Origin: Clostridia bacterium
GTDB lineage: Bacteria; Bacillota; Clostridia; Christensenellales; UBA1242
DNA: 64,000 nucleotides
Direction: 5' to 3'
Assembly: GCA_900767715.1 (NCBI GenBank)
Contig: CAAGAD010000005.1
Coordinates: forward strand, 83,697 to 147,696
Within the stretch, counting starts at the first letter, position 1. Each line of letters opens with the position of its first letter. Below are positions 6,001 to 60,493 of the stretch, piece after piece. The position numbers and the translations under genes were made by a program. A model generated the notes under the pieces. The model worked only from the letters and a program-made list of their open reading frames with translations. It did no database searches and was not told where the DNA came from.

Positions 6001-6398
6001 ATGATACACTTGCCGACAACAGAGTCCAAATCTTCACCAAAGATACCAAATGGTTTACAAAGGTTGATAACAACTATGTTGAATACGCGGGCAAAGTCTT
6101 TGAGTCTGGCGTAACGTATTACTATTACGACGAATACACGGTAACTTATCGCGCATTTGATTTGAATAAGTACACGTTATACGCAGAAGGCACAACCGCA
6201 GACACGGCTGGCCCTGGAATGAACTTGTACATTGATTTGAGCGAATGTTTGGACGGCAACATCTTTACACTCCCATACGAAGCGTGGAAGAGTGAATCGA
6301 TGATTCTCACATTCAATGTTGACGTCACTTACGACGGCACAACTTACAAGTCGCAGATTAGAATTCTAGAAATTACTGCCAAGCCTAATCTTGCATAA
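3..6398 (+). CDS. giant surface/secreted protein, 5'-truncated by window edge (>2,130 aa), unknown family
   Basis: Frame 3 is open from nt 3, with no stop upstream of the track's GTG at 27, to TAA at 6396-6398. Composition is N/T/Y/D-rich and beta-type. A TDFGY(S/K)(K/Q)D motif recurs at nt 1171-1200 and 2415-2447. A hairpin terminator follows. Confidence 0.8.
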   Translation, partial: GGSSGIKSVNVSTSADGRVFTPAGTITPTSERYLFAVDNSYAGNYVKFTISFNIPADDIEYVVYVNDNLLVEEKNIPFIHNGTLTAYCGESYNIVDYITLKHFDEGEYTNYVASNATEIELTDYIIKEYPTFDISTEFVCDWAWVDSTLNVSYNDKTVLKIDVVNPYSIVEQNADYTLKALTAVRLGDFITGAEIKLLKKAVAFDATATYYNAQGRKIVDPVPANIEDYFTLVDGGNYGIEFKTSDVLSSTDISVGTLNDETYIYIGKQTVAGTLTFIVAFNDSEVVRQQADVIVNVEPNLPDNFIKANRVGTSGNTIDLRDFINTEYGYDRFEWNDVLGEPVKAVGNITLAQEPFSSNDVALLSEDNNKFIAPEPTDPRGDLTLTFTVNTDFGYSKDFTVTIQSATQLIATYPTHSTREIQIDNQLVTVMYEQVVAGQTVNMFGVDADNKVTRVKAMKNGTEITTPLEIKYSYQAGRDTTDVTSYITINNGSITFNAGASALFALTISEPVSHRELLYYFYLAPSVNKTFTPTYNGTNTQNVLVDKDHTTLDIASLFALTIDGVEANKTNLQYEICYSTNTQTAITDSTLTFTESNVENDYIVVIYDNIYIYGYYNIHTIPNVTAQNTVINWTPETIGAQLANLPEFTYNGGVMTIAEINVDTALSTYIDITNDASRTITLKQFVPTTVAGVLTYKLVMMSGESEIGIYEHNVALTINARQYFADKYNAGTKALEVTAGDQFSLTNAEYNLAGLTVADNGLHYTIKEINGVAYNGQDMGVYYTEENLTFTFNPVADNVTLHFVIDTDFGYKQDLYIKLMADIKSAIYKAKDENGHELGTVSNPLTINDQFTEAETPLFVFNRAIDLANYLSITSRKDNGELLTAGNFRLTATILSDWAIDNNISVADIYSLDGTTLTFVPLASELRLAFKVEIKMSGDTYFASATMFYITLSANYNANVNYAFVGDTSELIENGKQINFSNSSFIAVRDNLTGVDNYNAKRISFFYPANANSEITEFDYTNISASAINKLTVTVDSQTNTDITAHIDDNGITFDNATTSTIGSVTLRFKNQVGIDLTMTFKIYPTNTLDAISSIKYNGKEPSATNDHELILNKNLNISKDYTITTFGDSSSRVLFRYPANEKGEFIESLKAKSTVVYDETGAVQDCFDVQIDETLINIKLKQDSAGNWIYPAPKLYTIHFLSRAGYLGSYKFTFSQDVNFDNTGYNVSEGEKIYGSQSGVQLLDRVGITLYEYTADGYESSQIDLVDKILTSATNEYNGYSLQFESNSRYITIGKNDNGTRDDILSFTQVSADTNASVTVKVLYNGVVIASHDYNFIIQEHLIVSLGYYNDTTTVRSIDIYMRDFYKDNFYDETLPDKIEYDLTNSLNPTDELFFTLRNVLQGKYGDPADLKFTIDTNASTSGINNFVELNNYKLVFKKDVTEDTLLVLNVGYQGGTSRKTFSITIKPSIAVSRYTDGGSGQYIYGVDNSGVDIYSLDDLVIANTNSPSNTSQAEMPKIEMNDIKTNGVAPLALYTVSKMKGNTPYTPLAEDTDGSVRVVSMEYAMFANEEALNNTSTGYRRASYTKLSVDYASTATISGKKRHNNFKFTVPNVNANKIMSVKVKVRLLGGNYYEYYYFIKVNPALTLGESKKYTEFTQISLAKLKADNAVVETKANNKYTLFTANGKDTNAAGDDGALFYWTPMQNEFGFDKFKNNVVFVITNVDNGINNNVAFSIDKESDITLSITSSEDGGMLFNNALKFRLYVLALDSKNLFEFGADQIVKTYTGAINSDTLALLENNMIFAQDVEIKPKKELGIYTTVWGEISQIHAISDLGLPIDLGYTDKRCLMDYVSVGSDTSRAIELVNGNFKGNLVSDYKGIMNGFDFTADYGWKICVEDVTISYSNFKLTRTFNYIVSNSATFVKINYATFNDRIKMTPEINDGVYGENSRDLARSISLVTVETRYIPTEPDKKMNDLTETNNGLTISTSLGSSKLGNDTLADNRVQIFTKDTKWFTKVDNNYVEYAGKVFESGVTYYYYDEYTVTYRAFDLNKYTLYAEGTTADTAGPGMNLYIDLSECLDGNIFTLPYEAWKSESMILTFNVDVTYDGTTYKSQIRILEITAKPNLA

Positions 6399-6481: not shown

Positions 6482-6503
6482 AAATCCAAAAGTGGAGGAA
6501 ACT

Positions 6504-9500
6504 ATGGCAATTAGTTCTAAATTTATTCAAGATTTGGCGCGAATCAACGGAGCCAAGGTTGATTTGAGTGATGCAAATGCTGTCAAAGATTGGTTTGATA
6601 ACTCTTCATACAAATATATGGCTGACGCCAGCGCGGACAATAGAAGTTTCGTGGAGCGCATTATCACTGCACTCTTGCTTTTGGGTGACGAAACAGACAA
6701 TGCGGTGGGCTTGACTATGGAAGAGCGCAACAGTGTTATGCGCATTGCTGACGACGCTTCATTAATTGGTAATGGCAGTTATTTGACTGAAATTTTGCGT
6801 CTATTTAGCAAGAAGGCTGGCGACAGAGATTTGGCTAGACCCGACGCTGAACTCAATATGGGCTTTGTTCAATCCCACCTTCACAATTATGGATTTGACG
6901 ACAGAGCCGTTGAAACTATTGTTAAGCGTGGCAACATTAGCGCCAAAGTTAAATTGGTGGACAGTGCGTCAAGAGTTATGCGTACCAACGCTAGCACCAA
7001 GACAATCATTGCCAAGACCAACGATATTGACGATGTAAAAGCAGAAGTAATCGACCTTGCCAAAGACGTTTACAAAAACAGTGGCGCTAGACCAGCATAT
7101 AGCATTAAAGGTATTCCAAACAGAATTTGGACAGACAGCGACGTGACTATCGTTGAAGACGCAGACGACAGAAAAGTGATTGCCAAGTCTAACGGTATCA
7201 AGTCTGCCGAAGAGAGAATTATGGCCGGTACTAGCCACCCATTGACAGGTGTTTTGAAGCACCTTGTTGACGGTCGTGCCAGAGCCGACGTTCAAACTCC
7301 TGACCAAATCATCGACGACATTCAAGCATATTTGTTGATGAATGACCGTTTAACCACAGTCAAGAAAGAAGACGAATGGAACGCCATTCGTAAGGAAATT
7401 GCCGTTGACGCTCGTTTGGCAGTAGATAAGGACGACAACGTTTCTCTCTACACACCTGCTCGTGGTGAAGAATTGAGCTCCAAGGACGACATCAAGAAAA
7501 TTGTTAACATCACCGAACTTGGTTCAGTAGGCATTGAAGCCGGCGCAAGTTTCGTAGGTTATGATATCTCCGACCCAGACGTTCGCGAGGCTTACGAATT
7601 GATGCAACAAGGTTTGCTCAGAGCCAACAACCGTAACGACAAACTCGCAATCAATTTGTTGAACGCACACAAATTGTATTCTAGCGCAGTTGGATTGCCA
7701 GTCAGCCCAAAGACTACCACAGCCAACATTTACGCTAATATGGTTGATGACCCAGAAGGCATTATTGGTAAGGACGGCTTGACCAGCGATATGCGCAATT
7801 TCTTCCGTAAAATCGCCAACAATCCTAACAGTCCATATTACCAAATCGAAATCGACAACGGCGTTGCAGAACAACGTAGCGACAAAAAGATGGGTCTGGA
7901 AATCAACTACATCTTCAAAAACAAAACCAAAAAATTGGTTAAGACCAAATTGCAATTCAGCACACGTTTCATCGGCTATGACGATGAAGGCAAGCCATCA
8001 CTCCTATTGAAGAGTGACGACGCAATCAAGTTCTCTGTAATTCAATCAATGGTTCTTGACTATGTAAGCAACTTTAAAGAAAAGGTAAACAACGTTGACT
8101 TCAAGATTGTCGGCGCTGAAAAAGACAAGGTTCGTGACCCTAATGAACGTGCTTTGATGGCTAACCTTGCTACACAATTCGTTATGATGGGTTACTCGTT
8201 CGGCGACAGCCCAGCACACAAGATTAACGAAGAACTTATCAGCACATATTTGATGGAAAACCAAGCCACCATTTTGGCAGGACTTGCGAAATCGGGCAAA
8301 GACTATGCGGTAGTATTGCCACGCGCATACAAATGGGCTATGAGAGTGGCAGAAATCGTTACTGACAGCCTTGGCATTGACAAGACTATGAAACGTGACT
8401 CTAAAACTGGCAGAATCACCGGCAAGAGCGAACTAGTTGCCAACTTTGAACGCCACGGCTTCACCTTCCCAAGAATGAACTCTAACGATCAACCTTTGTT
8501 CTTGTCCAACGAACAAAAAGCAAGACTTTCTGGCGCTGACTTGAAGAAATACAACGCTGAAGAAAAGCGTTTGCATGAACTAGGCATCACCTCACAAGAC
8601 AGTTTGGGTGCACTTTTGATATCTTGCATTGACACTCAACTTTCACCAAAAGAAATCACTTTTGAACCACAAAATCAAACTGTTAAGCAAGCCGACGAAA
8701 ACAAATTCGAAGACACTCGCGCTAGACTTGCCAACAAGCACGACGCATTGCCAGTCATTGACCCAAGCGTTATTCTTACTGATGATGACTTGACAGAAGA
8801 CACAGGTCTTGACGCAACAGATGTGGAAGAAATTGAAGAATCTCTTGAAGCAGGCAAGCCTAAGACTCCAACTCCAAAGTCAGTAGAGCCTAAGCCAGTT
8901 GAAACTGAAAAGAAAGAAGCCAGCGAAACTGCTCCAAAGACCAGTCCAGAAGACAAGAAAAAGCCTAGAAGCCTATTTGATATGATGACAGACCGTATCA
9001 AGAAGGGTATGGACAAAAAGGATAAGACAGTTCAACCTAAGGAAAAGACCGAAGTTGGCTATTTCTGGGACGAACACAAGGACGCTGGTCCAATGGAACG
9101 CCATTACGAAGAGCGTTCACTTGAAGAGATGAAGTCAGGTAACCTACCTGTAAGAACAAAGAGAACTTACGATGATGTTGAGTTCAGCGATAACACCACA
9201 TCAGCCGAAAATAGACCTGAAGTAATCTATTTGCCAGGCAAGGTAGAAGAAGTTTCAGCCGAAGAAATAACCGAAGAAGACAAAGATGCCGTAATCACCG
9301 GAAAACAAGCATTCAAAGACAGAATGAAGCAAGGTAAGTTGGAAGCACTTTTCAAAGAAAAAGATGAAAAGACACCTACCAAAGAAGCCATTTACGGTTA
9401 TATTGACGGCAAATTCTATTTCGCAATTAGACACATCAAAACTGGTAAGGTAACTGACAGATTTGAAACTGAATTGAGCAAAGCAACTAAGACTAAGATT

Positions 9501-9614
9501 GACAAAGCCCAAGGCGAAGAAAAAGATGCACTCATCGCTAAATACGCAGAGAAAGCAGCCAAGGCTTACAAACAATTTAAGAATGCTAAACGCGATACAA
9601 AAATCGAAAAATAA
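6504..9614 (+). CDS. hypothetical 1,036-aa protein with no signal peptide or TM segment: ~700-aa N-terminal region plus E/K/P-rich low-complexity C-terminal third
   Basis: ATG at 6504 sits 5 nt after GGAGG, so the track's GTG at 6492 lies on the RBS. I recognise no Walker or catalytic motif. PKTPTPKSVEPKPVETEKKE-type tracts begin at about nt 8860. Confidence 0.75.
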   Translation: MAISSKFIQDLARINGAKVDLSDANAVKDWFDNSSYKYMADASADNRSFVERIITALLLLGDETDNAVGLTMEERNSVMRIADDASLIGNGSYLTEILRLFSKKAGDRDLARPDAELNMGFVQSHLHNYGFDDRAVETIVKRGNISAKVKLVDSASRVMRTNASTKTIIAKTNDIDDVKAEVIDLAKDVYKNSGARPAYSIKGIPNRIWTDSDVTIVEDADDRKVIAKSNGIKSAEERIMAGTSHPLTGVLKHLVDGRARADVQTPDQIIDDIQAYLLMNDRLTTVKKEDEWNAIRKEIAVDARLAVDKDDNVSLYTPARGEELSSKDDIKKIVNITELGSVGIEAGASFVGYDISDPDVREAYELMQQGLLRANNRNDKLAINLLNAHKLYSSAVGLPVSPKTTTANIYANMVDDPEGIIGKDGLTSDMRNFFRKIANNPNSPYYQIEIDNGVAEQRSDKKMGLEINYIFKNKTKKLVKTKLQFSTRFIGYDDEGKPSLLLKSDDAIKFSVIQSMVLDYVSNFKEKVNNVDFKIVGAEKDKVRDPNERALMANLATQFVMMGYSFGDSPAHKINEELISTYLMENQATILAGLAKSGKDYAVVLPRAYKWAMRVAEIVTDSLGIDKTMKRDSKTGRITGKSELVANFERHGFTFPRMNSNDQPLFLSNEQKARLSGADLKKYNAEEKRLHELGITSQDSLGALLISCIDTQLSPKEITFEPQNQTVKQADENKFEDTRARLANKHDALPVIDPSVILTDDDLTEDTGLDATDVEEIEESLEAGKPKTPTPKSVEPKPVETEKKEASETAPKTSPEDKKKPRSLFDMMTDRIKKGMDKKDKTVQPKEKTEVGYFWDEHKDAGPMERHYEERSLEEMKSGNLPVRTKRTYDDVEFSDNTTSAENRPEVIYLPGKVEEVSAEEITEEDKDAVITGKQAFKDRMKQGKLEALFKEKDEKTPTKEAIYGYIDGKFYFAIRHIKTGKVTDRFETELSKATKTKIDKAQGEEKDALIAKYAEKAAKAYKQFKNAKRDTKIEK

Positions 9615-10556: not shown

Positions 10557-11096
10557 ATGAAGAAAAAATACATCACCATTTCAATTATTTTCATATTACT
10601 TTTAGCAGTTGACTTGATTACCAAGTCAACTTTTGTAGGCGCAGATTATGTGGTCATTCCGCACCTTTTCAATTTTCACTACACGCAAAACACGGGCGCG
10701 GGGTTCAGCATTTTGGCAGACAAAACTTGGCTGTTGATTCTGCTCAGTGTTGCAATGATTATTGGCATTGTGTTGTACGACATCTTTGCCAAGCGCAAAC
10801 ACCCCCTTTACAACGTCGCCTTTGCACTCATTTTGACGGGCGCAATTGGTAACCTTATTGACCGCGTGTTTTTGGGTTATGTGCGCGACTTTGTTCAATT
10901 TGCCTTTTGGCAAGAGTTTCCTATCTTTAATGTTGCAGACATCTGTCTAACTTTTGGCGTTATACTTTTCGTCATATTTGTGTTATTTTTAGATAAAGAC
11001 CCGTCAAAAGATATTTTATTGCAACAATCCAAAACGAAAAATAAAACAATAAACAACGAAGATAGAATCATAAAAAAGGACGATGAAGATGAGTGA
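10557..11096 (+). CDS. lspA: lipoprotein signal peptidase II
   Basis: Four TM segments. Motifs NTGAGFS, GAIGNLIDR and FPIFNVADICLTFG. Confidence 0.9.
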   Translation: MKKKYITISIIFILLLAVDLITKSTFVGADYVVIPHLFNFHYTQNTGAGFSILADKTWLLILLSVAMIIGIVLYDIFAKRKHPLYNVAFALILTGAIGNLIDRVFLGYVRDFVQFAFWQEFPIFNVADICLTFGVILFVIFVLFLDKDPSKDILLQQSKTKNKTINNEDRIIKKDDEDE

Positions 11097-16389: not shown

Positions 16390-16911
16390 ATGGAATACAA
16401 ACTCTGTCTTGAAAATTGGAGTCAATTCGATTTTCTAATCAACAACTTTTACGAAATTGTGGAATACAAGCGCGGACGTGGCGTGTATGGCGACAGAATT
16501 ATTTTGCGCCGACCACGCAATCCACAATCCGTGTTCGCCACACCGGATAAGCAGTACGATTTTTACTACCTTGACGCGCACAACACCAAAGAGTTGCCAC
16601 GCACCACGGCAGAGAAGATTGTGCTCATCACCAAATTTGTTTGCGACCCACAAGCAATGACTCAAATAATTCGCACCGATGACGCCAATGTCATCAGTTG
16701 GTCGTTAAATCTGCGCAAGAAAATGCGCTCTGCCAAATCTATCGACTACAACACTCTCAACGACATTTTGGTGGCAGAATATCACAAGATGTCGAACGAT
16801 TTTTTGGCAAAACTGCACGCTCATCGTCAAAAACAATACTTGCTTGCCAGCAGTGAAGCACTCGGTTTGGTTAGCCCAGAATTTGCCAACAATCAAATCA
16901 AAGTTTTATAA
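16390..16911 (+). CDS. hypothetical 173-aa protein, operonic with the HicB-like gene
   Basis: GAGGTG RBS. It starts 10 nt after the upstream stop. No motif recognised. Confidence 0.6.
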   Translation: MEYKLCLENWSQFDFLINNFYEIVEYKRGRGVYGDRIILRRPRNPQSVFATPDKQYDFYYLDAHNTKELPRTTAEKIVLITKFVCDPQAMTQIIRTDDANVISWSLNLRKKMRSAKSIDYNTLNDILVAEYHKMSNDFLAKLHAHRQKQYLLASSEALGLVSPEFANNQIKVL

Positions 16912-17011
16912 AAGACGCAAAATTTGTGTCTTTTTTTATTTTTATCGTCAAAATGCTTGCTAATTTTTAATATAATTGGTTAAAATAATAACGAAATGCA
17001 AGGAGGTGAAT

Positions 17012-19651
17012 ATGGAATATAATCACGAAAGAAGAAAATTGAGAATCGCGACCTGGATTGTCGTCGCACTACTCATTCTGTCTATCATTGGTGCTTCACT
17101 TTTGTTTGCGTTGAGCAACCGTACCAAGAATAAAACTAAACAGCCTAATGTCGTGAATGTGGGTGACAGTATCTCCAAAAACGGCACAAATAATGTCACC
17201 ATTCCCAACGCAAGCGTGTGGGACGGCACAAGTTCAACTAGTTGGTCTGGTAGCGGTACTGCGTCTAGTCCATATTTGATTAGTACTGCTAGTCAACTGG
17301 CAGGTCTTGCAACTAACGTTAATAATGGTAATACATACGCTGGAAAGTATTTTAAATTAACAAGCAATCTTGATATGGCTGGTGAAGGCTATGCGGATAG
17401 TACAGGCTATGCCTATCTAGACTATGAAACTTACAAGAACTATAAAGTGGGCTCCACTTTTACCGTAGGAAAATATACTTACAAGGTAATAAGTATTAAC
17501 CCACCATCTTCATCAGGTACAGAAATAGTTACGAAAGGACTATGCATTGCCGAGCCAGCGGGCACTTATTCTACCGGCGATATTTTGCAAAGCAGTGGCG
17601 ACGAGTCGGTTGAAGTAATGAGTTCCTACACGGGTAATATGGAAATGGCTGGCTATACCGGTTGGCGTCTAGGTGATTATACAACAATCACCGGTCAAGG
17701 CATTAGTTTCTCCGGCTATGCGCAAATGGTGCACGAGTCAGATTTCCAGAGTGGTGGCTATAATGAAACAGATTTTACTTATATTAATGATTCGTCAATG
17801 GAAGTCTATGATATAACGGTAAACTACTACTCCGGTTCAGATACAGACCCAGGCAGTGTGTATTGTAGTTATACCTATCAAAATGGTAAGGCATTCACTT
17901 CGATTGGTACAAGTTCTACTAAATATTTTGGTGGAAACTTTGACGGTGACGGTCATATAATTGGCAACTTGGCAACCAAGTATAATAGTTCAATATTCGG
18001 TTTGTTCGGCTACGTCAACTCAACAGGTGGCGCAGTAACGATCAAAAACTTAGTTTTAAATTATGACTATGCTGGTGGCAATTATAGTTATTCGTGCAAT
18101 ATATTTGGCGGATTGTGTTGCCAAATTAACACTACATCTTCATATGGCGTAACGATTGAAAATATTACAATCGACTTTGACAGTGGTAGTTATGCAAGTA
18201 CTTCATCTTCCACGAGATATTGTGGCGGACTTGTGGGCAAACACAATGGCGCCAACAATTTGGTTATTAGAGATTGTACGACTACAAAATTAAGTTGGCA
18301 ACATAATTCACCTTTGTATTTTGGTGGTATTATTGGTTACACAGTAGGCGCGACAATAGATAGATGTCAATCTAACTTAAAATCTAGAACAATCGGCAAA
18401 AATCCAACTTCCGACAATAAATATATCGGTGGAATAGTTGGTTATGCAAGTTTGGTAAAGATTAACGATTGCTACTTTAATGGTGAAATTGAAACTAAGT
18501 ATAATGAATCAAATGTAATCAAGGGCATTGGCGGTATTCTTGGCTATGGTTCAGCATATATAGCAAATTGCTTGTTCCAGGGTTCTATCCAATTTGGTGC
18601 GAAATCTGGGTTATCAGTTTACACCGTAAAAGTTGGTGGAATTTGTGGCTCCAACAACTGCTCGACCGCAGGCTATAAATCAATCGTGAACTGCATATCA
18701 AATGGCACAATTAAAAATACTTCTACATCGGTTCAAGCAAAATTTGCAGGCGGTGTAATCACGCCTTATGGCGCAACAGGTACAGGTGCGTTGAGTGAAC
18801 TCGTCGCTGTTTACAACACTAAGAATCATTCACCTAACAATGTGACAACCAGCAGTTCGTACGGCACAAATATTGATTCCAATTTGGCTACTAGTGATAC
18901 ACTTGTTAAATCGGCTTCAACATATGCATCTTGGACTGATTTTAGTTCTCACTGGTCGATAAATGAGAATATAAACAACGGTTATCCTATGCTAGCCGTG
19001 TTCACTCCTGAAGCACAAGTTACAGGCTTTGAAGGTAGTGGTAGTTCTGCAAGTCCTTATCTAATTAGCACTCAATCGGATATGATTGCTTTTGCAAACT
19101 ATTACAACAACAATCCAAAAACTGTATCGGGTGTTTATTGGAAACTCAATGCGAATATTGATATGACTAAGAACGCAAGCAATGTTCTCATTCACTTTGC
19201 GCCAGTGTGTTACAACGGCACATTTGACGGATATTTCGATGGCAATAGCAAGACAATTAGCGGGTTACTCATCGATAAGCAATATCAATACACTGGTTTG
19301 TTCGGCACGATTGCTAGTGGCAGTTATGTCAAGAACCTGACCGTAAACGGAACAATTTATTGGGATCAAACCTATGCGGTTGGCGGTGTGGCTGGTCGCG
19401 TGATGGCTGGTGGATATTTACAGAACTGCGTATTCAACGGCAACATCATTGGCGTACTCAACACCAAATCAAGCACGGAATGTCACGGCGTGGTAGGTAA
19501 GTATGAAATCGGCGGGGCGAATAATTGTTCTGCTACATACATAGAGTTGAAATACGCCAAGATTGGTGGCACAGCAACTGCGCCAACCTACACTTACTAT
19601 TTGTACGATTGGTCGCAAATCACTACCAGATTGTACAATAGTTTGGTTTAG
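17012..19651 (+). CDS. membrane-anchored surface protein with two GLUG-like repeat modules
   Basis: AAGGAGG RBS before ATG 17012, then an N-terminal TM anchor. The header SGSGTASSPYLISTASQLAGLA / GSGSSASPYLISTQSDMIAFA occurs twice. There are many G-G-[ILV]-x-G repeats (YCGGLVGKHNG, FGGIIGYTVG, IGGIVGYAS, IGGILGYGS, VGGICGS, VGGVAGRV). Confidence 0.8.
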   Translation: MEYNHERRKLRIATWIVVALLILSIIGASLLFALSNRTKNKTKQPNVVNVGDSISKNGTNNVTIPNASVWDGTSSTSWSGSGTASSPYLISTASQLAGLATNVNNGNTYAGKYFKLTSNLDMAGEGYADSTGYAYLDYETYKNYKVGSTFTVGKYTYKVISINPPSSSGTEIVTKGLCIAEPAGTYSTGDILQSSGDESVEVMSSYTGNMEMAGYTGWRLGDYTTITGQGISFSGYAQMVHESDFQSGGYNETDFTYINDSSMEVYDITVNYYSGSDTDPGSVYCSYTYQNGKAFTSIGTSSTKYFGGNFDGDGHIIGNLATKYNSSIFGLFGYVNSTGGAVTIKNLVLNYDYAGGNYSYSCNIFGGLCCQINTTSSYGVTIENITIDFDSGSYASTSSSTRYCGGLVGKHNGANNLVIRDCTTTKLSWQHNSPLYFGGIIGYTVGATIDRCQSNLKSRTIGKNPTSDNKYIGGIVGYASLVKINDCYFNGEIETKYNESNVIKGIGGILGYGSAYIANCLFQGSIQFGAKSGLSVYTVKVGGICGSNNCSTAGYKSIVNCISNGTIKNTSTSVQAKFAGGVITPYGATGTGALSELVAVYNTKNHSPNNVTTSSSYGTNIDSNLATSDTLVKSASTYASWTDFSSHWSINENINNGYPMLAVFTPEAQVTGFEGSGSSASPYLISTQSDMIAFANYYNNNPKTVSGVYWKLNANIDMTKNASNVLIHFAPVCYNGTFDGYFDGNSKTISGLLIDKQYQYTGLFGTIASGSYVKNLTVNGTIYWDQTYAVGGVAGRVMAGGYLQNCVFNGNIIGVLNTKSSTECHGVVGKYEIGGANNCSATYIELKYAKIGGTATAPTYTYYLYDWSQITTRLYNSLV

Positions 19652-25394: not shown

Positions 25395-26129
25395 ATGAAA
25401 AAGAGAAATTGGATAAAAAGTCTGGCGATCGCGATATGTTTAATTATTCCGGCATTGTTGCTATCAGCGTGCGGAGAAGGTGGCTACATTCCACCTGAAA
25501 CTAGGTACGCATGGGGCAGAACATTCACCTATCAAGGCGCATCGTTCAACGACTATTTGACTATTGGCGGAAACAATGGCACGCCAAGGGGCAAACTTTT
25601 AAAAGATGAATACACCAAAGGCAACTTGGATTTGGCAAACGCATTTATAAATGGAGTAGCGGTTGATTTATCGCAATATAGTGACTTGTCTGCAGATGCA
25701 TTCTTCCAGCACCTTATCAGTATGATGGAATCCAGATTGCACACCATGTGTGACGGCATAACTATTGTGGTCAGCACAGAAGAAGAACTTACTGTTACAG
25801 TCAACAAGAAACCATATAAATTGGTTGAAACTTCCGTAGGATCAAACTATTTCACATTGATTGACGAATCCGCTGTCGGTGGCGCTATTTTATCATGGGG
25901 CAATATGTCTTCGCTTTTGTTGAATAGTAGTGGTGACGGTCAAGAAGTGAACTATGGTCTAGACATTTCCGTTTTCGATGAAAAAATAAACGCTTATGAC
26001 AGAATTTCTACCATTGATGTTACAATTCCGACATTCAAGATTGTCAACGATGAAACGGCTGTATTAATCGACAACAAGTATAGCACTTTATCAATTAGTC
26101 TAAAACCATATTTTAACGAAGCAGTTTAA
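25395..26129 (+). CDS. lipoprotein, paralog A of a tandem pair
   Basis: Lipobox LLSAC. The mature region shares PETRYAWGRTF(T/S)YQG ... (K/T)PYFNE(A/V)V with the next gene. Confidence 0.8.
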   Translation: MKKRNWIKSLAIAICLIIPALLLSACGEGGYIPPETRYAWGRTFTYQGASFNDYLTIGGNNGTPRGKLLKDEYTKGNLDLANAFINGVAVDLSQYSDLSADAFFQHLISMMESRLHTMCDGITIVVSTEEELTVTVNKKPYKLVETSVGSNYFTLIDESAVGGAILSWGNMSSLLLNSSGDGQEVNYGLDISVFDEKINAYDRISTIDVTIPTFKIVNDETAVLIDNKYSTLSISLKPYFNEAV

Positions 26130-26232
26130 ATAGAATAAAAATAGTAAAAGGAAGTTTTATGAAAAAGTTTTCTAGTTTTTTGTTGGCGATATGCTTTTTA
26201 GTTCCGCTAGCGTTGGTTTTGACGGCTTGTGG
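26129..26232 (+). repeat. lipoprotein 5' cassette copy 1 (5'UTR + RBS + signal peptide + lipobox)
   Basis: Hand alignment to 27841-27944 gives 97 of 104 identical positions with no gaps. Confidence 0.85.
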
Positions 26233-26872
26233 TAAAGACGCTCCCGAAACAAGATACGCGTGGGGAAGGACGTTTAGTTATCAGGGCACTGTTATGCACA
26301 ATTTTTACTCTTATGGTGGTAATAACGGCACTGAAAATGGTCAACTCGTGAAGAGCGAATTTAAAAAGAGCAATCTTGATTTGGCAAAAGTGAAAATCAA
26401 TAACGTAACCACTGATTTGTCCGCGTTCTCAAATCTTTCTGCCGACCAATTTTTGCAGGAGATTACTAAACGGGCGAAAGCAGAAATGCAATCATTGTAC
26501 GGCAATATCACTATAAAAGTTGGCACGGAAGAAGAATGCAATGTGACTATCAACGGTAAAGTTTATAAACTGCAAAAAACTGAATTTGACCATAGATACA
26601 ATATTATCGACGAATCCGAATCAGAAACATCTTCAAATAGAGAATGCGGCAATTTAAGTGTAAAACTTTGCCATGACGGTAATAATCAAGACCTAAATTA
26701 TGGGCTTGACATCAGTAAGTACACATTGGACGGCAAAGCGGGTGTTGTGATTAGCTCTGTAACAATCGAGATTCCTACAATAAAAGTTATTGAATATGAA
26801 TCCGCATCGTTTAATGGTACATATTCATATATCACGATTAGCTATACGCCATACTTTAATGAAGTGGTGTAA
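26159..26872 (+). CDS. lipoprotein, paralog B of a tandem pair
   Basis: Lipobox VLTAC. The mature region is homologous to 25395-26129. The 5' end is shared with 27871-28554. Confidence 0.8.
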   Translation: MKKFSSFLLAICFLVPLALVLTACGKDAPETRYAWGRTFSYQGTVMHNFYSYGGNNGTENGQLVKSEFKKSNLDLAKVKINNVTTDLSAFSNLSADQFLQEITKRAKAEMQSLYGNITIKVGTEEECNVTINGKVYKLQKTEFDHRYNIIDESESETSSNRECGNLSVKLCHDGNNQDLNYGLDISKYTLDGKAGVVISSVTIEIPTIKVIEYESASFNGTYSYITISYTPYFNEVV

Positions 26873-27231
26873 GTAGTTACAAAAAAATCCAATTAAATTT
26901 GGATTTTTTTGTTGCTATAGTTGATGGTTGTTTGAGTTTTCAGTTTGCATAAATTGCGCATATTCTTGCGCCAGGGTGGAGAAGCGCTCTCCAAGTAGGG
27001 ATTAACATGCCTCGTCTACGCTCATTTCGTGAGTGTGACTGAGATAGGCTTGAAATTATGTGAGCATTGCTTCCTTTTCTGCTGTGGACCCGAATACAGA
27101 ACGAATTGGGTTTGGCAAGTGATAAATTTTGTTTTTGCAACATTAAAAATATATCAAATTCGGGTGCAATATTATGCGACATATGTTATAATGTTCATAT
27201 AAAATTGCAAGGTTGAGTTTATAATTTGTGA

Positions 27232-27333
27232 CAATATGTAATAGCAAATGCAGTTGAGTTTTTATTAAGCGACAAGGCAAGTTTTATTACTGGTCATATT
27301 TTAACCGTTGATGGCGGATTTAGTTTAATATAA
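27232..27333 (+). pseudogene. 3' remnant of a short-chain dehydrogenase/reductase gene
   Basis: Translates to QYVIANAVEFLLSDKASFITGHILTVDGGFSLI*, the classic SDR C-terminus. An in-frame TGA lies immediately upstream, and there is no start codon or Rossmann region. Confidence 0.7.
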
Positions 27334-27360
27334 AATTATAAACAAAATATTGGAGGAAAT

Positions 27361-27736
27361 ATGGCAAATATAAAAGATGTACACCAATTAGCATTGAAAC
27401 TAGGACTATTTCAAAAACAAATTACGATATAGACATCAAAGATTTGATGTATTCGTTTGAGAACGGACAAAACTCCATTGAGTGCAATGCTTCCTATCTT
27501 GCTGGCGAAAGTTTGAATGTTGTTGCTGATTTTATTAAGCAAACAACATTAATAATACTAAGGATATGCGTAAAAACATTGAAGCAATCATCGATTCGTA
27601 TTCTAGCCTACACACTGGTGCGGAACTTGATGCCAAGCGTTTAGCATATATGAAAGACAAGTTACCACTTTTGTGTCAAGAGGTGGTAAGCAAATTGCCT
27701 GAGTCAATTTCGACAAAGCATAGTGAAAGAGTTTAA
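27361..27736 (+). pseudogene. frameshifted small gene (three frame segments)
   Basis: GGAGG RBS plus ATG 27361 gives 23 codons and then TAG. Reading continues in a second frame (DIKDLMYSFENGQNSIE...) and a third (MRKNIEAIIDSYSSLHTGAELDAKRLAYMKDKL...). A terminator hairpin lies at about 27743-27771. Confidence 0.55.
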
Positions 27737-27840
27737 TAACGAAAAATCCAAGATTAGTCTTGGATTTTTTGTGCTTTGTGACGAATTTTGGCGAATAATT
27801 TTTTTTGCATAATTATTAGTAAAAAAGCAAAACTAATTTT

Positions 27841-27944
27841 AATAGAATAAAAATAGTAAAAGGAAGTGTTATGAAAAAGATTTTTAGTTTTTTGTTGGCG
27901 ATATGCTTTTTAGTTCCGCTAGCGGTCGTAATGACGGCTTGTGG
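27841..27944 (+). repeat. lipoprotein 5' cassette copy 2
   Basis: Hand alignment to 26129-26232 gives 97 of 104 identical positions. Similarity ends at the Cys+1/+2 codons. Confidence 0.85.
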
Positions 27945-28554
27945 AGAGAATGAAGTCGTGGTGAGTGTGGCAACGATTGAAGAATTGATGACGGCTGTTG
28001 ACGGCGACAACGATGTCATCAAGTTGACTGAAGATATGGAAGCGACCAGCGCGATTGTCGTGAAACGCAAAGTCACGTTTGACTTAAACGGCAAGACGCT
28101 CACGGGCGATGGCGATTATGGCGTGATATACACACAAGGCGACGCGGAAGTCACAATCACGGGCGACGGCAAAATTGTGGCAAAGGAAAGCGCCGACCAT
28201 TATGCAATGGTTATTTGGGCAAAGGATAACTCAAAAGTAATGATTGAAAACGGCACGTTTACGCAGTCTATCACTGGAACCGACTCGCAGTATGATATGA
28301 TCTATATCACGGAAAGTGCTCAGTTGACAATCGAAGGCGGCAAATTTGATTGCCACACACCAAAGTGGACGCTCAATATTCAAGACAAAGATGCTACAAC
28401 TGCCAAATTTATCGTTAAAGGTGGCGAATTTAAGTCTTACGACCCTGCAAACGTGATAACCGAACCAAAGGACTCGAATGTGACGAGTTTCTTGCCAGAG
28501 GGTTATAAATCCACCTACAACAAGACTACACAATATTACACAGTTAATAAATAA
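27871..28554 (+). CDS. lipoprotein, probable beta-helix-type repeat protein
   Basis: Lipobox VMTAC. Repeated G-x-I/V strand pattern (TLTGDGDYGVIYTQGDAEVTITGDGKIVAK...MIENGTFTQ...TIEGGKFD...IVKGGEFK). Terminator GCCGATTTCGGC plus T-run. Confidence 0.75.
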   Translation: MKKIFSFLLAICFLVPLAVVMTACGENEVVVSVATIEELMTAVDGDNDVIKLTEDMEATSAIVVKRKVTFDLNGKTLTGDGDYGVIYTQGDAEVTITGDGKIVAKESADHYAMVIWAKDNSKVMIENGTFTQSITGTDSQYDMIYITESAQLTIEGGKFDCHTPKWTLNIQDKDATTAKFIVKGGEFKSYDPANVITEPKDSNVTSFLPEGYKSTYNKTTQYYTVNK

Positions 28555-28773
28555 AAAAAAGCCGATTTCGGCTTTTTTATTTATCCAATTTGATATTGTC
28601 AATTAGTGTTTAGATTCTGTGTTCTATATAACATTTTTAATTAGTGGTTTGTTATGTCAACCTTAAAAATTTATAGTTATATTTTGACCAATCCCAAATC
28701 TTTGCAATAATTGTTTTGAAATGGTTATCTTAATATGTTACAATTAAAATATTAAACATAAAGGAGAAACAAA

Positions 28774-29243: not shown

Positions 29244-29329
29244 TGGTGCCGAAGGTGGGACTTGAACCCACATGAAGTTGCCCTCGCAAGATTTTGAGTC
29301 TTGTGCGTCTGCCATTTCGCCACTTCGGC
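29244..29329 (-). tRNA. tRNA-Leu (anticodon CAA), long variable arm, encoded CCA
   Basis: The reverse complement reads GCCGAAGTGGCGAAATGGCAGACGCACAAGACTCAAAATCTTGCGAGGGCAACTTCATGTGGGTTCAAGTCCCACCTTCGGCACCA. Acceptor GCCGAAG/CTTCGGC, anticodon loop CT-CAA-AA, T-loop GGTTCAAGTCC. Confidence 0.9.
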
Positions 29330-39694: not shown

Positions 39695-40156
39695 GTGGAA
39701 AACATTTGTCAAAACAAACGCGCATCATTCGATTACGAACTTTTGGACAGATACGAGGCTGGCGTTGTTTTGACTGGCGACGAGATTAAGTCGGTGCGTG
39801 CTGGCAGTATGTCTTTGAATGACAGTTTTTGCCTTGTGCGAAATGGTCAAGTGATTTTGAAGAACGCATACATCAAACCATACACCAATGCGTACAGTGG
39901 CTACCAAGGTAAGCACGACGCTCGTCAAGACAGAGTGCTACTTTTGAACAAATATGAGATTAAGCAAATCAAGAATGCAATTGAGCAAAAAGTACTCACA
40001 ATAGTTCCAACGCGTGCATACTTTGTTAAGCATCTTGTCAAGGTGGAAATCGCAGTCGCACGTGGCAAAAAACTTTTCAACAAAAAGGACAGCATAAAAG
40101 AAAAAGACATTGCTCGTTCAAGCCAGCGCGCATTGGCAGATATGGGGATGAAATAG
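39695..40156 (+). CDS. smpB: SsrA-binding protein
   Basis: GTG start 5 nt after AGGAG, and a TGCTATAAT extended -10 upstream. NKRASFDYELLDRYEAGVVLTGDEIKSVR. Confidence 0.9.
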   Translation: MENICQNKRASFDYELLDRYEAGVVLTGDEIKSVRAGSMSLNDSFCLVRNGQVILKNAYIKPYTNAYSGYQGKHDARQDRVLLLNKYEIKQIKNAIEQKVLTIVPTRAYFVKHLVKVEIAVARGKKLFNKKDSIKEKDIARSSQRALADMGMK

Positions 40157-40487
40157 TTTCGACAGTGTTGGTTAGGTTAGAATACGCACGTAGTAGTAGG
40201 CGCTACTATAAAAACCAAATCGTTTAATAAACGCAAACAATAATAATGTAGCCGTTGCTGCCTAGTCAGCCGGCCGTTGACCTACTTGCACCGAAAGGGT
40301 AGCCATCAACGTCATAATTTCGGTGAACGGACGCGTTCGATTTCTCTAAAACGTGTCGGCATTTAGAGAATAGTTTGGTACAAGTCGTTAGCAGACTTCA
40401 CCAAGCGAAATAGATTGCTAACTAAACGTGTAGGGTATTCAGCAGATTCAATATTGGACATGGGTGCAACTCCCATCATCTCCACCA
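40144..40487 (+). ncRNA. ssrA: tmRNA (ssrA)
   Basis: 5' GGGGATG pairs with 3' CATCTCC-A-CCA and includes a G3:U pair. T-arm ATGGGTGCAACTCCCAT. Tag ORF GCA AAC AAT AAT AAT GTA GCC GTT GCT GCC TAG (40233-40265) = ANNNNVAVAA*. It lies directly after smpB. Confidence 0.88.
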
Positions 40488-40527: not shown

Positions 40528-40586
40528 GTCGTAACTAATTACCACTTTTTGACAAATTGTGCTATAATTTATGTAAGGTAAAATTT

Positions 40587-41036
40587 ATGGGAGCATTTAA
40601 TTACGTTGGTTTAATAATAATCGTACTTATGATGATACCGAATTTGATTTATATGTACGTCAATAGAAACACAAAACCAGTGGTATATGCAGACAAGAAA
40701 CTGGACACATTAGAGCAGATTGGGCGTTACGGCTGTTTTGCTTGTATGATAGTCAATTTTCCATACACATATTTTGACTTTTGGTTCAAAAATGCCGAAC
40801 TAGTTTACATTATCGTTAGCGCTGTATTGATGACTTGTTATATGCTTTGCTGGATTATATTTTGGAAGAAAACAACAATGTTCAAGGTATTGGCGTTGTC
40901 TGTCTTGCCTTCTATGATGTTTTTGTTCACCAGCATAATGCTTGGCAGTCTGTTGTTGTTCTTTTTCACACTCATCTTTGCACCAACGCACTTCATCATC
41001 GGTTACAGAACCGTCAAATTGAATCAATCAAAATAA
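40587..41036 (+). CDS. integral membrane protein (149 aa, ~5 TM)
   Basis: Hydrophobic throughout. ATG 40587 lies downstream of a TGCTATAAT extended -10. Confidence 0.6.
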   Translation: MGAFNYVGLIIIVLMMIPNLIYMYVNRNTKPVVYADKKLDTLEQIGRYGCFACMIVNFPYTYFDFWFKNAELVYIIVSAVLMTCYMLCWIIFWKKTTMFKVLALSVLPSMMFLFTSIMLGSLLLFFFTLIFAPTHFIIGYRTVKLNQSK

Positions 41037-41954: not shown

Positions 41955-43331
41955 ATGTTTTGGAATGCATTTGTTAATGTTTTGGCCATAATTGCGATTA
42001 TAGTTGTCGCAGCATTTGTGATGATTTTTCTCGGCGATTTGCTAATCAGCATTATTGACGGCAAGAGTGGCATTTTCTTTAAGCGAAACAAGAAAGCGAA
42101 AGTGGAAGAATTGGAAGATGAGGACGATAAGTCTAACTATGCAACACGCGAAGAGTTGGCAAAGTTGCAAGAGATGTATCGCAACAAGGAAACTCAATCT
42201 GCACCAGTTGTAGTTGTTCAGCCACAACCTGTTCAAAAGAACGTAACAGACGACTACCTAAACAACGCAGTGCCAGTTGACTACGATTTGGCTAAGAAAG
42301 AAGAAGAAATTATGAATGCCAAGAAAAATAGACTTTTGGTTCCAAAGGAGGAAGAAAAAGTTGAGAGTGGCATTACGAAAGACGAAATTCTTGACCAAGT
42401 TGATAAAGTGGCTGACGACATCTTGTCTAACTACGAAGCAGAGAAGACCAACAAGCAAAAGATTGACGATTACGCAAAAGAATTGGAAAACTACAAGATT
42501 GAGACATCTCTTGACGACGTAAACGAAGAAGAGTCGAATGCAAACACCGACAACAGCAATAATGACAATAATGACAATAATGACAATAATGACAATGATG
42601 ACAACGGTGACGATGATGGCGCAATTTTGGAACCAGCACCAGCACCAGAAAAGATTGTTGAGAAAGAAGTTGTCAAAGAAGTAATGGTTGACAATCCTGA
42701 AATTGTTGAAGAAAACAAAAAATTGCAACAACAACTTGAAGAACTCCGCAACGCATTGCAAGAAGCAAATAATCGTGCTAGCGAACTCGAACAAGAACAC
42801 GAAGAAGAAAAAGACGCCGGTCCAATGATTTACACAACTGTTGAAGACTGCGAAGCCCGTCTTGAAATCTTGGAAGAGCGTTTGAGAGTGGCAAAGAAAG
42901 AACTCAAAATCAATGACAAAGAGTTCAAACCATTGTTCAAGGTTCGTAAGAATCTCAACAAATACAAAGAAAAACTTCGTCGTAAAGAAGTCAGTGTAGC
43001 ACGTCAAAAGGTCGTTTTGTATGGTGTAAACAACTATGTGGATATCGACAAAGACCGTGCAGAAAAGTTGGCTAACGACATTGAATTGCTTGACGGACTC
43101 CGTTTGAGCGTTCAAGATTGTGAAAACGTGGTTGAAGCAAGCAAGGACCGTTATCCAATCTTGGAACAAACTAACCGTTTGTTGAAGACTAACATTGCAG
43201 ACTTGGAACACGACATTGAAACAACAACACAAGTTTTGGAAGCATTGAAGGCTGACACTCTCGTTGACCTTAACGACAACGGCATTGATGACCGCGCCGA
43301 AGACAATGACGACGACAAAAACAATAAATAA
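41955..43331 (+). CDS. membrane-anchored coiled-coil protein with acidic N/D repeat
   Basis: AAGGAGAG RBS. N-terminal TM segment (VLAIIAIIVVAAFVMIFLG), long E/K-rich heptad-like regions, and an NNDNNDNNDNND tract. Confidence 0.75.
   Translation: MFWNAFVNVLAIIAIIVVAAFVMIFLGDLLISIIDGKSGIFFKRNKKAKVEELEDEDDKSNYATREELAKLQEMYRNKETQSAPVVVVQPQPVQKNVTDDYLNNAVPVDYDLAKKEEEIMNAKKNRLLVPKEEEKVESGITKDEILDQVDKVADDILSNYEAEKTNKQKIDDYAKELENYKIETSLDDVNEEESNANTDNSNNDNNDNNDNNDNDDNGDDDGAILEPAPAPEKIVEKEVVKEVMVDNPEIVEENKKLQQQLEELRNALQEANNRASELEQEHEEEKDAGPMIYTTVEDCEARLEILEERLRVAKKELKINDKEFKPLFKVRKNLNKYKEKLRRKEVSVARQKVVLYGVNNYVDIDKDRAEKLANDIELLDGLRLSVQDCENVVEASKDRYPILEQTNRLLKTNIADLEHDIETTTQVLEALKADTLVDLNDNGIDDRAEDNDDDKNNK
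42558..42593 (+). repeat. in-frame 9-bp tandem repeat (AATAATGAC x4) with degenerate copies to ~42620
   Basis: Four perfect head-to-tail copies counted directly, followed by AATGATGAC, AACGGTGAC and GATGATGGC. Confidence 0.9.
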
Positions 43332-51431: not shown

Positions 51432-51741
51432 CTGTAAGGCAATATTTACTGGGACGAAGCGTATGCAGTAGGTGGTGTTGCGGGCAGAGTGCTGGCAAAC
51501 GGATATTTGCAGAACTGCTCGTTCAATGGCAACATCATCGGCGTACTCAACACAAAAACTAGCACTGAAAAGTGGCGTGATAGGTAAGTATGAAATAAAT
51601 GGAGCAATCGACTGCACAGCAACTTATACCGACCTAAAATATGCCAAAATAGGTGACACAGCCGAATCACCAACTTACACATATTATCTCTATGACTGGG
51701 CGCAAATGACAACCTATTTGTACAACAAAAAGGTTGTCTAG
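51432..51741 (+). pseudogene. frameshifted 3' remnant of a GLUG-like surface-protein paralog
   Basis: Aligns to nt ~19350-19651. NIYWDEAYAVGGVAGRVLANGYLQNCSFNGNIIGVLNTKTSTEK runs to a stop at 51585-51587. After a frame shift near 51568-51575 it continues GVIGKYEINGAIDCTATYTDLKYAKIGDTAESPTYTYYLYDWAQMTTYLYNKKVV*. There is no 5' part, no start codon and no RBS. Confidence 0.8.
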
Positions 51742-59713: not shown

Positions 59714-60493
59714 ATGAAAAATTATTTTACCATAGGTTCGTTAGAGATTTATTATTATGGTGTGCTTATGGCATCGGCAATGCTCATTGGCATTTTTTTG
59801 GCTTTTGGTATTAGCGAACGCAAAAACATCAAACGCGAATCAATCTTTGACCTTGCGCTCATCGTTCTGCCACTCGCCGTATTGGGCGCGCGCACATATT
59901 ATTGTATATTTAGCGATTATCACTACACATTTGCGGAGTTTTGGCAGATAAACAAAGGCGGTCTCGCCATTTATGGCGGTGTCATCGGCGGGTTTATAGG
60001 CGTTGTGATTTTCAGTCTTATCAAGAAAAAAGACATTCGCTCGGTGTGTGATGTCATCGCGCCGTCGCTCATACTTGGACAGGCAATTGGTCGTTGGGGC
60101 AACTTTATCAACCAAGAAGCCTATGGTTATGTCATTAACAACCCAAAATGGCAGTTTTTCCCAGTGGGTGTGGAAGTTGACGGCGTTTGGCATTTGGCAA
60201 CCTTTTTCTATGAGTCAATGTGGAACTTGGTTGTCTTTGCCGTCATCTTGACCATATTCTTCAAGACCAAGTCAAAGGGCACAACTACTGCTTGGTATCT
60301 CATCTTGTACGGGCTCGGGCGCACCGTCATTGAAGGACTCCGCACCGACAGCCTTTACATCGGTAGCACGGGCATACGCGTGTCGCAGGCGTTGAGCGTG
60401 GTGCTGATTTTGTGCGGAATTGGTATGCTTATCTACAATCTTGTCAAAAATAAGAAGACTAAGGTTGTAGAAAGTGATTCGAACAAAGTATAA
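59714..60493 (+). CDS. lgt: prolipoprotein diacylglyceryl transferase
   Basis: GLAIYGGVIGG, GRWGNFINQEAYG, multiple TM segments. Confidence 0.92.
   Translation: MKNYFTIGSLEIYYYGVLMASAMLIGIFLAFGISERKNIKRESIFDLALIVLPLAVLGARTYYCIFSDYHYTFAEFWQINKGGLAIYGGVIGGFIGVVIFSLIKKKDIRSVCDVIAPSLILGQAIGRWGNFINQEAYGYVINNPKWQFFPVGVEVDGVWHLATFFYESMWNLVVFAVILTIFFKTKSKGTTTAWYLILYGLGRTVIEGLRTDSLYIGSTGIRVSQALSVVLILCGIGMLIYNLVKNKKTKVVESDSNKV

Follow-up and report, generated by a model that had tools for sequence, protein, structure and literature searches.

A likely graft of a translation start and signal peptide between unrelated lipoprotein genes in an uncultured gut Clostridia bacterium

Introduction

The erp genes of Borrelia burgdorferi (ospE/ospF/elp, with their 'upstream homology box') join one leader to many unrelated bodies, an arrangement made by recombination (PMC10016077). 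In the vsp, vpma and vsa genes of Mycoplasma the 5' untranslated region (UTR) and the signal-peptide coding region are highly conserved and the bodies differ (PMC2268961). The lpl genes of Staphylococcus aureus (nuSa-alpha island) undergo homologous recombination at a short conserved segment, and there the evolutionary unit is not the open reading frame (ORF) (PMC2568036). Here we describe two lipoprotein genes of an uncultured Clostridia bacterium (Christensenellales, UBA1242) that begin with a nearly identical block of DNA, which we call the cassette, and continue in unrelated bodies. They lie in a stretch of 64,000 nucleotides (nt), below called the window (GenBank assembly GCA_900767715.1, contig CAAGAD010000005.1, positions 83,697 to 147,696 of the forward strand). 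Positions are counted from its first letter and genes are named by their first position.

The two genes are 26159, whose mature domain belongs to a family that we call PETRYAWGRTF, and 27871, which encodes a beta-helix protein. We consider it likely that non-reciprocal recombination transferred the signal peptide and translation-initiation region from the beta-helix gene to a deeply diverged PETRYAWGRTF paralogue, giving rise to 26159. Related contigs and loci carry L numbers below, proteins found in searches carry P numbers.

The shared cassette

Pairwise alignment of positions 26129-26232 with 27841-27944 is ungapped and identical at 97 of 104 positions; a repeat search widens the pair to 108 nt at 93% identity (copy 1, 26125-26232, and copy 2, 27837-27944). 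The seven differences lie at -4, +10, +14, +55, +57, +60 and +61 relative to the ATG and lead to four amino-acid (aa) changes, while 22 of 24 third codon positions through the Cys codon are identical. On both sides similarity falls to the background level of 0-6 matches per 10-nt bin, mostly 1-4. On the left, copy 1 starts with the stop codon that ends the upstream gene (25395-26129), and the right edge of the cassette is the Cys codon followed by GG, two bases past that codon. Two stretches of the cassette, 27 and 33 nt long and searched with a tolerance of three mismatches, occur in the window at the two copies only and in shuffled sequence not at all.

Each copy contains a TAGAAT (26131-26136 and 27843-27848), the ribosome-binding site (RBS) AAAGGAAG (26147-26154 and 27859-27866), the ATG (26159 and 27871) and the lipobox Cys codon (TGT at 26228-26230 in copy 1, 27940-27942 in copy 2). 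The encoded signal peptides are MKKFSSFLLAICFLVPLALVLTACG in 26159 and MKKIFSFLLAICFLVPLAVVMTACG in 27871. As judged by pattern match and not by a trained predictor, both fit a type II signal peptide, with a basic MKK n-region, the h-region FLLAICFLVPLA and a lipobox (L-T-A-C in 26159, M-T-A-C in 27871) that fits [LVI][ASTVI][GAS]C.

The mature parts of the two proteins have no significant similarity (BLASTP E 0.079). The true paralogue of 26159 is its upstream neighbour 25395, which is 45% identical to it in amino acids, 53% in nucleotides and 35% at third positions, a value near saturation; their signal peptides differ and they have no high-identity tract in common. Set against these figures, the 97 of 104 matching nucleotides and 22 of 24 third positions argue for a recent common origin of the two cassette copies. 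These results bear out the original prediction, made from the sequence of the window, on the ungapped 97-of-104 match and its abrupt ends, the content of the block (RBS and signal peptide through the lipobox Cys, the peptides as written above), the unrelated mature domains, one of them beta-helix-like, and the paralogy of 25395 with 26159 under a different signal peptide.

The repeat is not an assembly artefact, because the two-copy arrangement recurs in the independent assemblies L005, L025 and L028. L025 is 100% identical to the window across 19.8 kb. The junction of the 244-aa gene's stop codon, copy 1 and the 237-aa gene is also found in the short contigs L026 and L027, and the left junction of copy 1 is identical in L005 and L025-L028.

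Direction of transfer

The signal peptide is of the type MKK(K)IFSFLLAIC. It is present in the close orthologues of the beta-helix gene, in which copy 2 is kept at 17 orthologous loci, and also in beta-helix members only 33-39% identical in the body (P0055, P0064 and P0073), which come from genomes of 27-29% GC and lie at a different locus. In those distant members the DNA identity with copy 2 over the signal peptide is 81% and 69%, against about 60% for the body. The PETRYAWGRTF relatives 25395, P0090 and P0091, on the other hand, bear an MKKRNWI-type peptide. Since distant beta-helix members have the cassette peptide and the relatives of 26159 have another, the peptide belongs by origin to the beta-helix family and is foreign in 26159. 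From these comparisons, gene 26159 appears to be the chimera, with a 5' end from the family of 27871 and a body from the PETRYAWGRTF family.

All 16 sequence variants of the 237-aa gene bear the cassette-type peptide at the same junction, and dN/dS of this gene between the window and L005 is 0.25, similar to that of neighbouring genes. The graft is thus old enough to have reached fixation, and the chimera is functional, under purifying selection.

On this reading the two 104-nt starts would be nearly identical because one gene took over the RBS and export signal of the other by recombination. The cassette would be the footprint of a single non-reciprocal event, and MKKIFSFLLAIC would not be ancestral to the PETRYAWGRTF family. 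The graft would span from the upstream stop codon to the lipobox Cys, and so cover ribosome binding, Sec targeting, lipidation by Lgt and cleavage by LspA. Its right junction lies in the lipobox-coding motif ACGGCTTGYGG, a plausible microhomology crossover point; this motif is common even to unrelated lipoprotein genes of the clade, including the gene of P0091. A short motif is also shared at the left limit of the cassette (TTTAA/TTTTA). As the limits coincide with functional edges and short shared motifs stand at both, a likely route is illegitimate recombination assisted by microhomology, with selection for a working gene as the filter. A Campbell-type single-crossover insertion at copy 2 was considered and rejected, copy 2 retains its original upstream and downstream context.

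The lipoprotein genes and their products

The cluster consists of four consecutive ORFs with lipoprotein signal peptides (Table 1). Genes 24402 and 25395 are separated by 57 nt and genes 25395 and 26159 by 29 nt, with no terminator between them, and the three probably form one transcription unit. Given the 29-nt spacer and the lack of a terminator, 26159 would be read from the transcript of 24402 and 25395.

Table 1. Features of the lipoprotein locus and of the lipoprotein pathway in the window.
Feature	Position	Strand	Basis or remark
LspA, signal peptidase II	10557-11096	+	PF01252 Peptidase_A8, E 8e-35
First lipoprotein gene of the cluster, 311 aa	24402-25337	+	No family assignment
Paralogue of 26159, 244 aa	25395-26129	+	Family's own MKKRNWI-type signal peptide
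Cassette copy 1	26125-26232	+	Whole 29-nt spacer after the 25395 stop, then signal-peptide start of 26159
Strain-variable 1.2-kb module	26130-27332		Copy 1, 237-aa body, terminator and gene remnants; BLASTN breakpoints
Predicted chimeric lipoprotein gene, 237 aa	26159-26872	+	Beta-helix-type signal peptide and PETRYAWGRTF mature domain
Intrinsic terminator T1 after 26159	26881-26911	+	-17.1 kcal/mol over 26876-26916
Pseudogene remnant, C-terminal 55 residues of 374-aa HExxH homologue	26936-27088	-	58% aa identity, two in-frame stops
Orphan C-terminal fragment ..LLSDKASFITGHILTVDGGFSLI*, resembling short-chain dehydrogenase	27262-27333	+	Translation; right end of module
Decayed gene, relative of the 229-aa gene	27362-27736	+	In-frame stop and frameshift
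Terminator T2 of the decayed 229-aa-type gene	27743-27771	+	Kept in L001, L003 and L021; sequence variant in L002 and L020
Cassette copy 2	27837-27944	+	Apparent native 5' end of the beta-helix lipoprotein gene
Beta-helix lipoprotein gene, 227 aa	27871-28554	+	Apparent source family of the cassette
Lgt, prolipoprotein diacylglyceryl transferase	59714-60493	+	PF01790, E 4e-66

The PETRYAWGRTF family is an orphan. Among 5.8 billion proteins it forms three clusters at 90% identity, and it has no match in Pfam, PHROG or NCBIfam. The AF2 model of this family (pLDDT 42, from only 5 sequences) is unusable.

The product of 27871 has 88 homologues and models confidently as a right-handed beta-helix (AF2 pLDDT 92.5, pTM 0.84). 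Its top Foldseek matches are all pectate-lyase-like beta-helix proteins, including pectate lyases, SRRP adhesins and alginate lyases. The top matches in the PDB include the pectate lyase 7xks (E 0.017, prob 0.97), none has an E value below 1e-3. The protein itself stays below the Pfam cut-off (PF13229, 15.5 bits against 25.9). Its homologues P0018 (33.2 bits) and P0028 (26.8 bits) pass the cut-off of 24.3 for Pectate_lyase_5 (PF20585), P0064 (21.2 bits) fails it, and 27871 is placed in the Pectate_lyase_5 group by this chain of homology and not by a direct match. Pectate_lyase_5 is described as a 'putative pectate lyase-like adhesive domain'.

The lipoprotein pathway is encoded in the window, which contains both Lgt and LspA. 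The products of 26159 and 27871 are predicted to be lipidated.

No promoter was called at the cassette by a promoter consensus scan, and Rfam found no RNA family in the cassette region. The two copies fold no better than shuffled sequence (z -1.8 and +0.4), which argues against a conserved RNA structure. The TAGAAT at 27843-27848 may be a -10 box, perhaps native to the beta-helix gene, since it aligns with a promoter-like TAGACA-17-TGaTATATT upstream of this gene in L002, L020 and L010. These three loci have an alternative type of upstream sequence (L002:3400-3478, L020:3480-3561 and L010:1850-1920, against window 27772-27870), in which the promoter-like sequence is a good one. The two upstream types are unrelated, at about 60% identity, and from the ATG itself onward the identity is 100%.

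Some 9-10 residues ahead of the lipobox Cys, nearly all lipoprotein signal peptides of the clade, those of unrelated families included, have an (L/I)(V/I)P motif, as surveyed in the four genes of the cluster and in P0018-P0048. This motif may reflect a lineage-specific constraint or older sharing of leaders. A large beta-helix subgroup (P0050-P0072, P0074/P0077) is without a signal peptide and has a conserved N-terminal module of about 45 residues, MIVTTRKHSYFVNDL, instead. P0052, a beta-helix homologue with this non-signal N-terminus, has no PHROG match.

Strain variation between tuf and polA

About 20 related contigs share the gene order rpsL-rpsG-fusA-tuf, the 311-aa lipoprotein, the 244-aa lipoprotein, a variable stretch and the beta-helix lipoprotein, which is followed by an optional 374-aa HExxH gene and then by MazG, PRK and polA. 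At least six gene-content haplotypes of the variable stretch occur across these contigs. In most strains it holds a 36-codon ORF and AT-rich DNA, with or without a 229-aa gene. The 1.2-kb module that contains 26159 is present in the window strain (which is also that of L025), L005 and L028 and absent from L001-L004 and L017-L024. Its left end coincides exactly with the left end of copy 1. An apparent extension of L017 by 17 nt into the cassette proved to be a spurious AT-rich alignment.

The rest of the module and its right flank hold pieces of other genes. The remnant of the 374-aa HExxH homologue is convergent to 26159 and lies 25 nt past its terminator. The orphan fragment at the right end of the module we take, from recognition of its motif, to be part of a short-chain dehydrogenase (SDR); a link to an SDR gene near distant beta-helix homologues (L013/L016) was sought, no similarity was found. 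To the right of the module the window has a decayed gene; over its last 68 codons (27529-27736) it matches, at 91% identity, the C-terminus of the 229-aa gene that is intact in L002 and L017-19. In L005 and L028 a 175-aa gene stands there instead.

The 175-aa gene (L005:4329-4853, L028:7243-7773) takes the place of window positions 27333-27528 and has no significant Pfam match. Behind it in L005 lies the 3' half of the 36-codon ORF, where a poly-A frameshift is possible. Many strains have the 374-aa HExxH gene, which is weakly astacin-like, in convergent orientation to the beta-helix gene (L001:10736-11860, minus strand); the window (28555-28773), L005, L017-19, L023 and L028 cleanly lack it. 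Between the 374-like remnant and the SDR-like fragment lies an extended -10-like element, TGTTATAAT (27180-27205), which is probably the orphaned promoter of a deleted gene.

The beta-helix gene is an allelic mosaic between strains, and the signal-peptide block is its most conserved piece. In the allele L021:8001-8687 (P0016) the cassette is identical to that of L001 and the first 150 nt or so have 0-3 mismatches per 50 nt against the window, after which identity drops to 53-78% per 50-nt bin; a recombination breakpoint therefore lies inside the beta-helix gene. In L021 this gene is followed by ABC-2 transporter genes and not by the 374-aa gene or MazG. With at least six haplotypes, the remnants at 26936-27088, 27262-27333 and 27362-27736 and a mosaic beta-helix gene, the locus between tuf and polA is a recombination-prone, junkyard-like hotspot.

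The terminators after 26159 and before copy 2 had been described as alike. They do share the motif AATCCAA..TTGGATT, which occurs in the window only at 26886-26905 and 27745-27766. Their 80-nt alignment scores 23, barely more than the 21 of other terminators of the window, and T2 belongs to the decayed 229-aa-type gene. As a sign of a larger duplicated unit the terminators were therefore rejected.

Further copies, recombinases and mobile elements

In the window, the species-representative genomes, the JGI metagenomes and the protein cluster representatives we found no copies or junction types beyond these two. A degenerate DNA pattern for the signal peptide gave one true match among 185,579 species-representative genomes, a single copy in the related species L010. 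This pattern demanded F-S-F, so that copy 1 of the window, with F-S-S-F, would escape it. A further match, in L011, is a chance match in an unrelated membrane protein. The cassette DNA pattern gave one match in the JGI metagenomes, the copy-2 orthologue L012 only. Two phmmer matches, P0092 and P0093, are artefacts of repeat proteins.

No integrase, recombinase or transposase was matched by Pfam in the 36 window ORFs scanned, nine of which have no match of any kind, and precomputed annotations show no recombinase or transposase within 10 kb in L001, L004 and L017. The genes of both copies are complete and in the same orientation. There is no inverted or swapped arrangement in the approximately 20 related assembled contigs, in which the assemblies collapse minority variants. 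BLASTN of positions 26100-28600 found nothing in phages or plasmids and the region has no PHROG or NCBIfam match, a mobile-element origin was rejected on these grounds.

Elsewhere in the window, a frameshifted fragment between truA and rplM (51438-51735, plus strand) is 70-84% identical in amino acids to the last 100 or so residues of an 891-aa surface-type protein (16976-19651, counterpart 19355-19638), and is a stranded piece of a surface gene. The plus-strand ORFs 27-6398 (2123 aa) and 6492-9614 (1040 aa) have no Pfam match at E 1e-5; also without a Pfam match are 16390-16911, 16976-19651, 40557-41036, 41955-43331, 58357-59637, 60474-60968 and 60981-61625. A tmRNA (40144-40487, tag ANNNNVAVAA) adjoins smpB, and tRNA-Leu(CAA) is located on the minus strand at 29244-29329, just downstream of the lipoprotein and MazG cluster.

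Weighing the alternatives

Several points weigh against a graft of the beta-helix 5' end onto 26159. No 237-type gene with the ancestral signal peptide was found, so that the state before the graft is reconstructed and not seen. The 374-like remnant past the terminator of 26159 repeats the arrangement that relatives have downstream of the beta-helix gene, and the order of events may have been replacement of a body inside a copy of the beta-helix locus, not replacement of a 5' end. Three states specific to copy 1 also occur in copy-2 alleles of the divergent strains L004 and L010, and the allele class of L028, discussed below, could be the original donor and not the product of a later conversion. 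Two further points concern the reach of the searches: the source genome is covered over about 64 kb, further copies elsewhere in the strain being excluded only indirectly, and the phmmer search with the 30-residue N-terminus against 1.84 billion representatives, whose only real match is P0089, is of low sensitivity.

Body replacement would mean that in a copy of the beta-helix locus the beta-helix body was exchanged for a PETRYAWGRTF body and that the module was then inserted beside the resident genes. The locus copy, with its cassette, body, terminator and convergent 374-aa gene, could have come from a diverged lineage, and the cassette itself would never have moved. Such a history fits the convergent position of the 374-like C-terminus, the position that the 374-aa gene takes behind the beta-helix gene in L001-L004, L010, L012 and L020, and it fits the presence of foreign fragments in the module. 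We nevertheless think it unlikely, the remnant is 58% identical in amino acids and the cassette 93% in nucleotides, so that, barring a later conversion of the cassette, the flanks would be of very different age. The two bodies are moreover followed by unrelated terminators, and no intermediate was found.

The two 5' ends could also descend from an old duplication and be kept alike by frequent gene conversion, perhaps selected for co-regulation or export efficiency. Between the window and L005 there are 2 mismatches per 104 nt for the copy-1 pair and 3 for the copy-2 pair, against 7 and 10 between copies 1 and 2 within one genome. As the copies of these two strains group by position and not by genome, there is no continuous homogenisation. 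The absence of a conserved RNA structure likewise speaks against this explanation, and so does the presence of the copy-1-type peptide in only 1 of 15 listed beta-helix proteins, while the conservation of the cassette between strains, the highest at the locus, would suit it.

Support for it also comes from L028. There copy 2 (8392-8592 region, orthologue of window 27771-27971) has the copy-1 state at all six diagnostic sites, the two copies differ at only 3 of 104 positions and the beta-helix gene reads MKKFFSFLLAICFLVPLALVLTACG followed by ENEVV. The same copy 2 retains an A at -15, otherwise found only in the sister haplotype L005, and the copy-1-type peptide occurs in just 1 of the 15 beta-helix cluster members listed. 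For these two reasons we read L028 as a later conversion of copy 2 by copy 1, probably over a tract of at least 66 nt. The exchange alters residues of the signal peptide only, not the surface-exposed body. Taken with the near-identity of the copies, it suggests that the two 5' ends recombined at least once and probably twice. They now form short direct repeats which can occasionally convert each other, and concerted evolution as the general explanation seems improbable to us.

A broader proposal is that the segment from the -10 box or RBS to the lipobox is a reusable 'expression-and-export module', captured repeatedly by unrelated bodies with the lipobox motif as the recombination joint. In its direction point the occurrence of MKK(K)IFSFLLAIC on beta-helix proteins only 33-39% identical, a LAIC-x2-P...TAC consensus common to otherwise unrelated lipoprotein families, the beta-helix subgroup with a non-signal N-terminal module and the alternative promoter and UTR types that join exactly at the ATG. 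We regard this proposal as doubtful; if it were true, the two-copy case would be the latest event of a general route to new commensal surface lipoproteins.

Programmed antigenic or phase variation of the Mollicutes type, in which the cassette would serve as the site where a dedicated recombinase switches the expressed body, is largely refuted and very improbable. In form the locus resembles vsp and vpma, where unrelated bodies likewise follow a conserved 5' UTR and signal peptide (PMC2268961). Against it stand the presence of only two copies, both complete and in direct orientation, the lack of a recombinase domain in the scanned ORFs of the window or within 10 kb in relatives, the lack of inverted or swapped arrangements in the approximately 20 assembled contigs, the constant junction in every variant of the 237-aa gene and the single copy in the related species.

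Convergence, in which the secretion machinery imposes one signal-peptide consensus with no transfer of DNA, would account for the (L/I)(V/I)P motif and T/S-A-C lipobox shared by the four clustered lipoproteins and most beta-helix homologues, yet the nucleotide data refute it, the near-identity reaches synonymous sites and 30 nt of upstream non-coding DNA, and 25395, subject to the same constraints, reaches only about 65% nucleotide identity over the cassette region.

The original prediction had read the locus as cassette shuffling or gene conversion that diversifies a lipoprotein repertoire, by analogy with the variable lipoproteins of Mollicutes. The mosaic nature of 26159 and at least one recombination between the 5' ends stand, diversification of a repertoire is not supported, as only two copies and two junction types were found. 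The analogy is not supported either, given the number and orientation of the copies, the missing recombinase and the same junction in 16 of 16 variants; that no recombinase is visible in the window was correctly noted. The prediction had named as contrary evidence a cassette confined to two genes, explained by the uniform decay of a single old duplication in a locus free of population-level rearrangement. The cassette is confined to two genes, its similarity is not that of a uniformly decaying old duplication, and the locus is rearranged among strains.

Significance

The best-supported view is that of a minimal, two-gene chromosomal case of mosaic lipoprotein formation by ordinary general recombination and not by programmed variation. 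It offers a clean and datable natural example, in an uncultured human-gut Firmicute, of how capture of a signal peptide and translation start can yield a working chimeric lipoprotein gene, and the strain haplotypes keep both the state without the module and a probable later conversion. Surface-lipoprotein loci of commensals can thus show the leader-sharing mosaicism of Borrelia and mycoplasmas with no dedicated switch. For annotators and pangenome pipelines the case means that N-terminal identity of lipoproteins does not imply homology of their bodies, and that short direct repeats of such a kind can seed deletions or assembly errors. It brings no new mechanism and opens no long-standing question.

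Comparison with known systems

The vsp, vpma and vsa genes of Mycoplasma lie in multigene clusters that have a single promoter, carry their recombination sites in the 5' UTR, invert at high frequency and adjoin the gene of a tyrosine recombinase (Xer1/Mbr/HvsR). None of these was found here, and the organism is a Clostridia metagenome-assembled genome that encodes Lgt and LspA, not a mollicute.

The lpl genes of S. aureus resemble the present locus in belonging to a Firmicute and in being adjacent lipoprotein genes in a variable region. Their conserved segment is central and all of the genes are paralogues, whereas the segment shared here lies at the 5' end of two genes with unrelated bodies.

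Ectopic (non-allelic) gene conversion and the formation of chimeric genes leave a short, sharp tract bounded by usable homology or microhomology, in a locus of high recombination. The tract described here differs in coinciding exactly with the RBS, start codon and signal peptide. This coincidence with a functional module is probably the result of a selection filter and not a property of the mechanism.

The erp genes of B. burgdorferi are a large family whose members occupy allelic sites on several cp32 prophage plasmids, have a conserved operator and are co-expressed; their mosaics are made by recombination between alleles. The present genes are two in number, located on the chromosome between tuf and polA with no link to a phage or plasmid, and their shared block starts about 30 nt upstream of the ATG, so that at most a -10 box is shared. 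In both cases a promoter-proximal region and leader peptide are shared by bodies of independent origin, and in functional terms erp is the closest counterpart of the two Clostridia genes.

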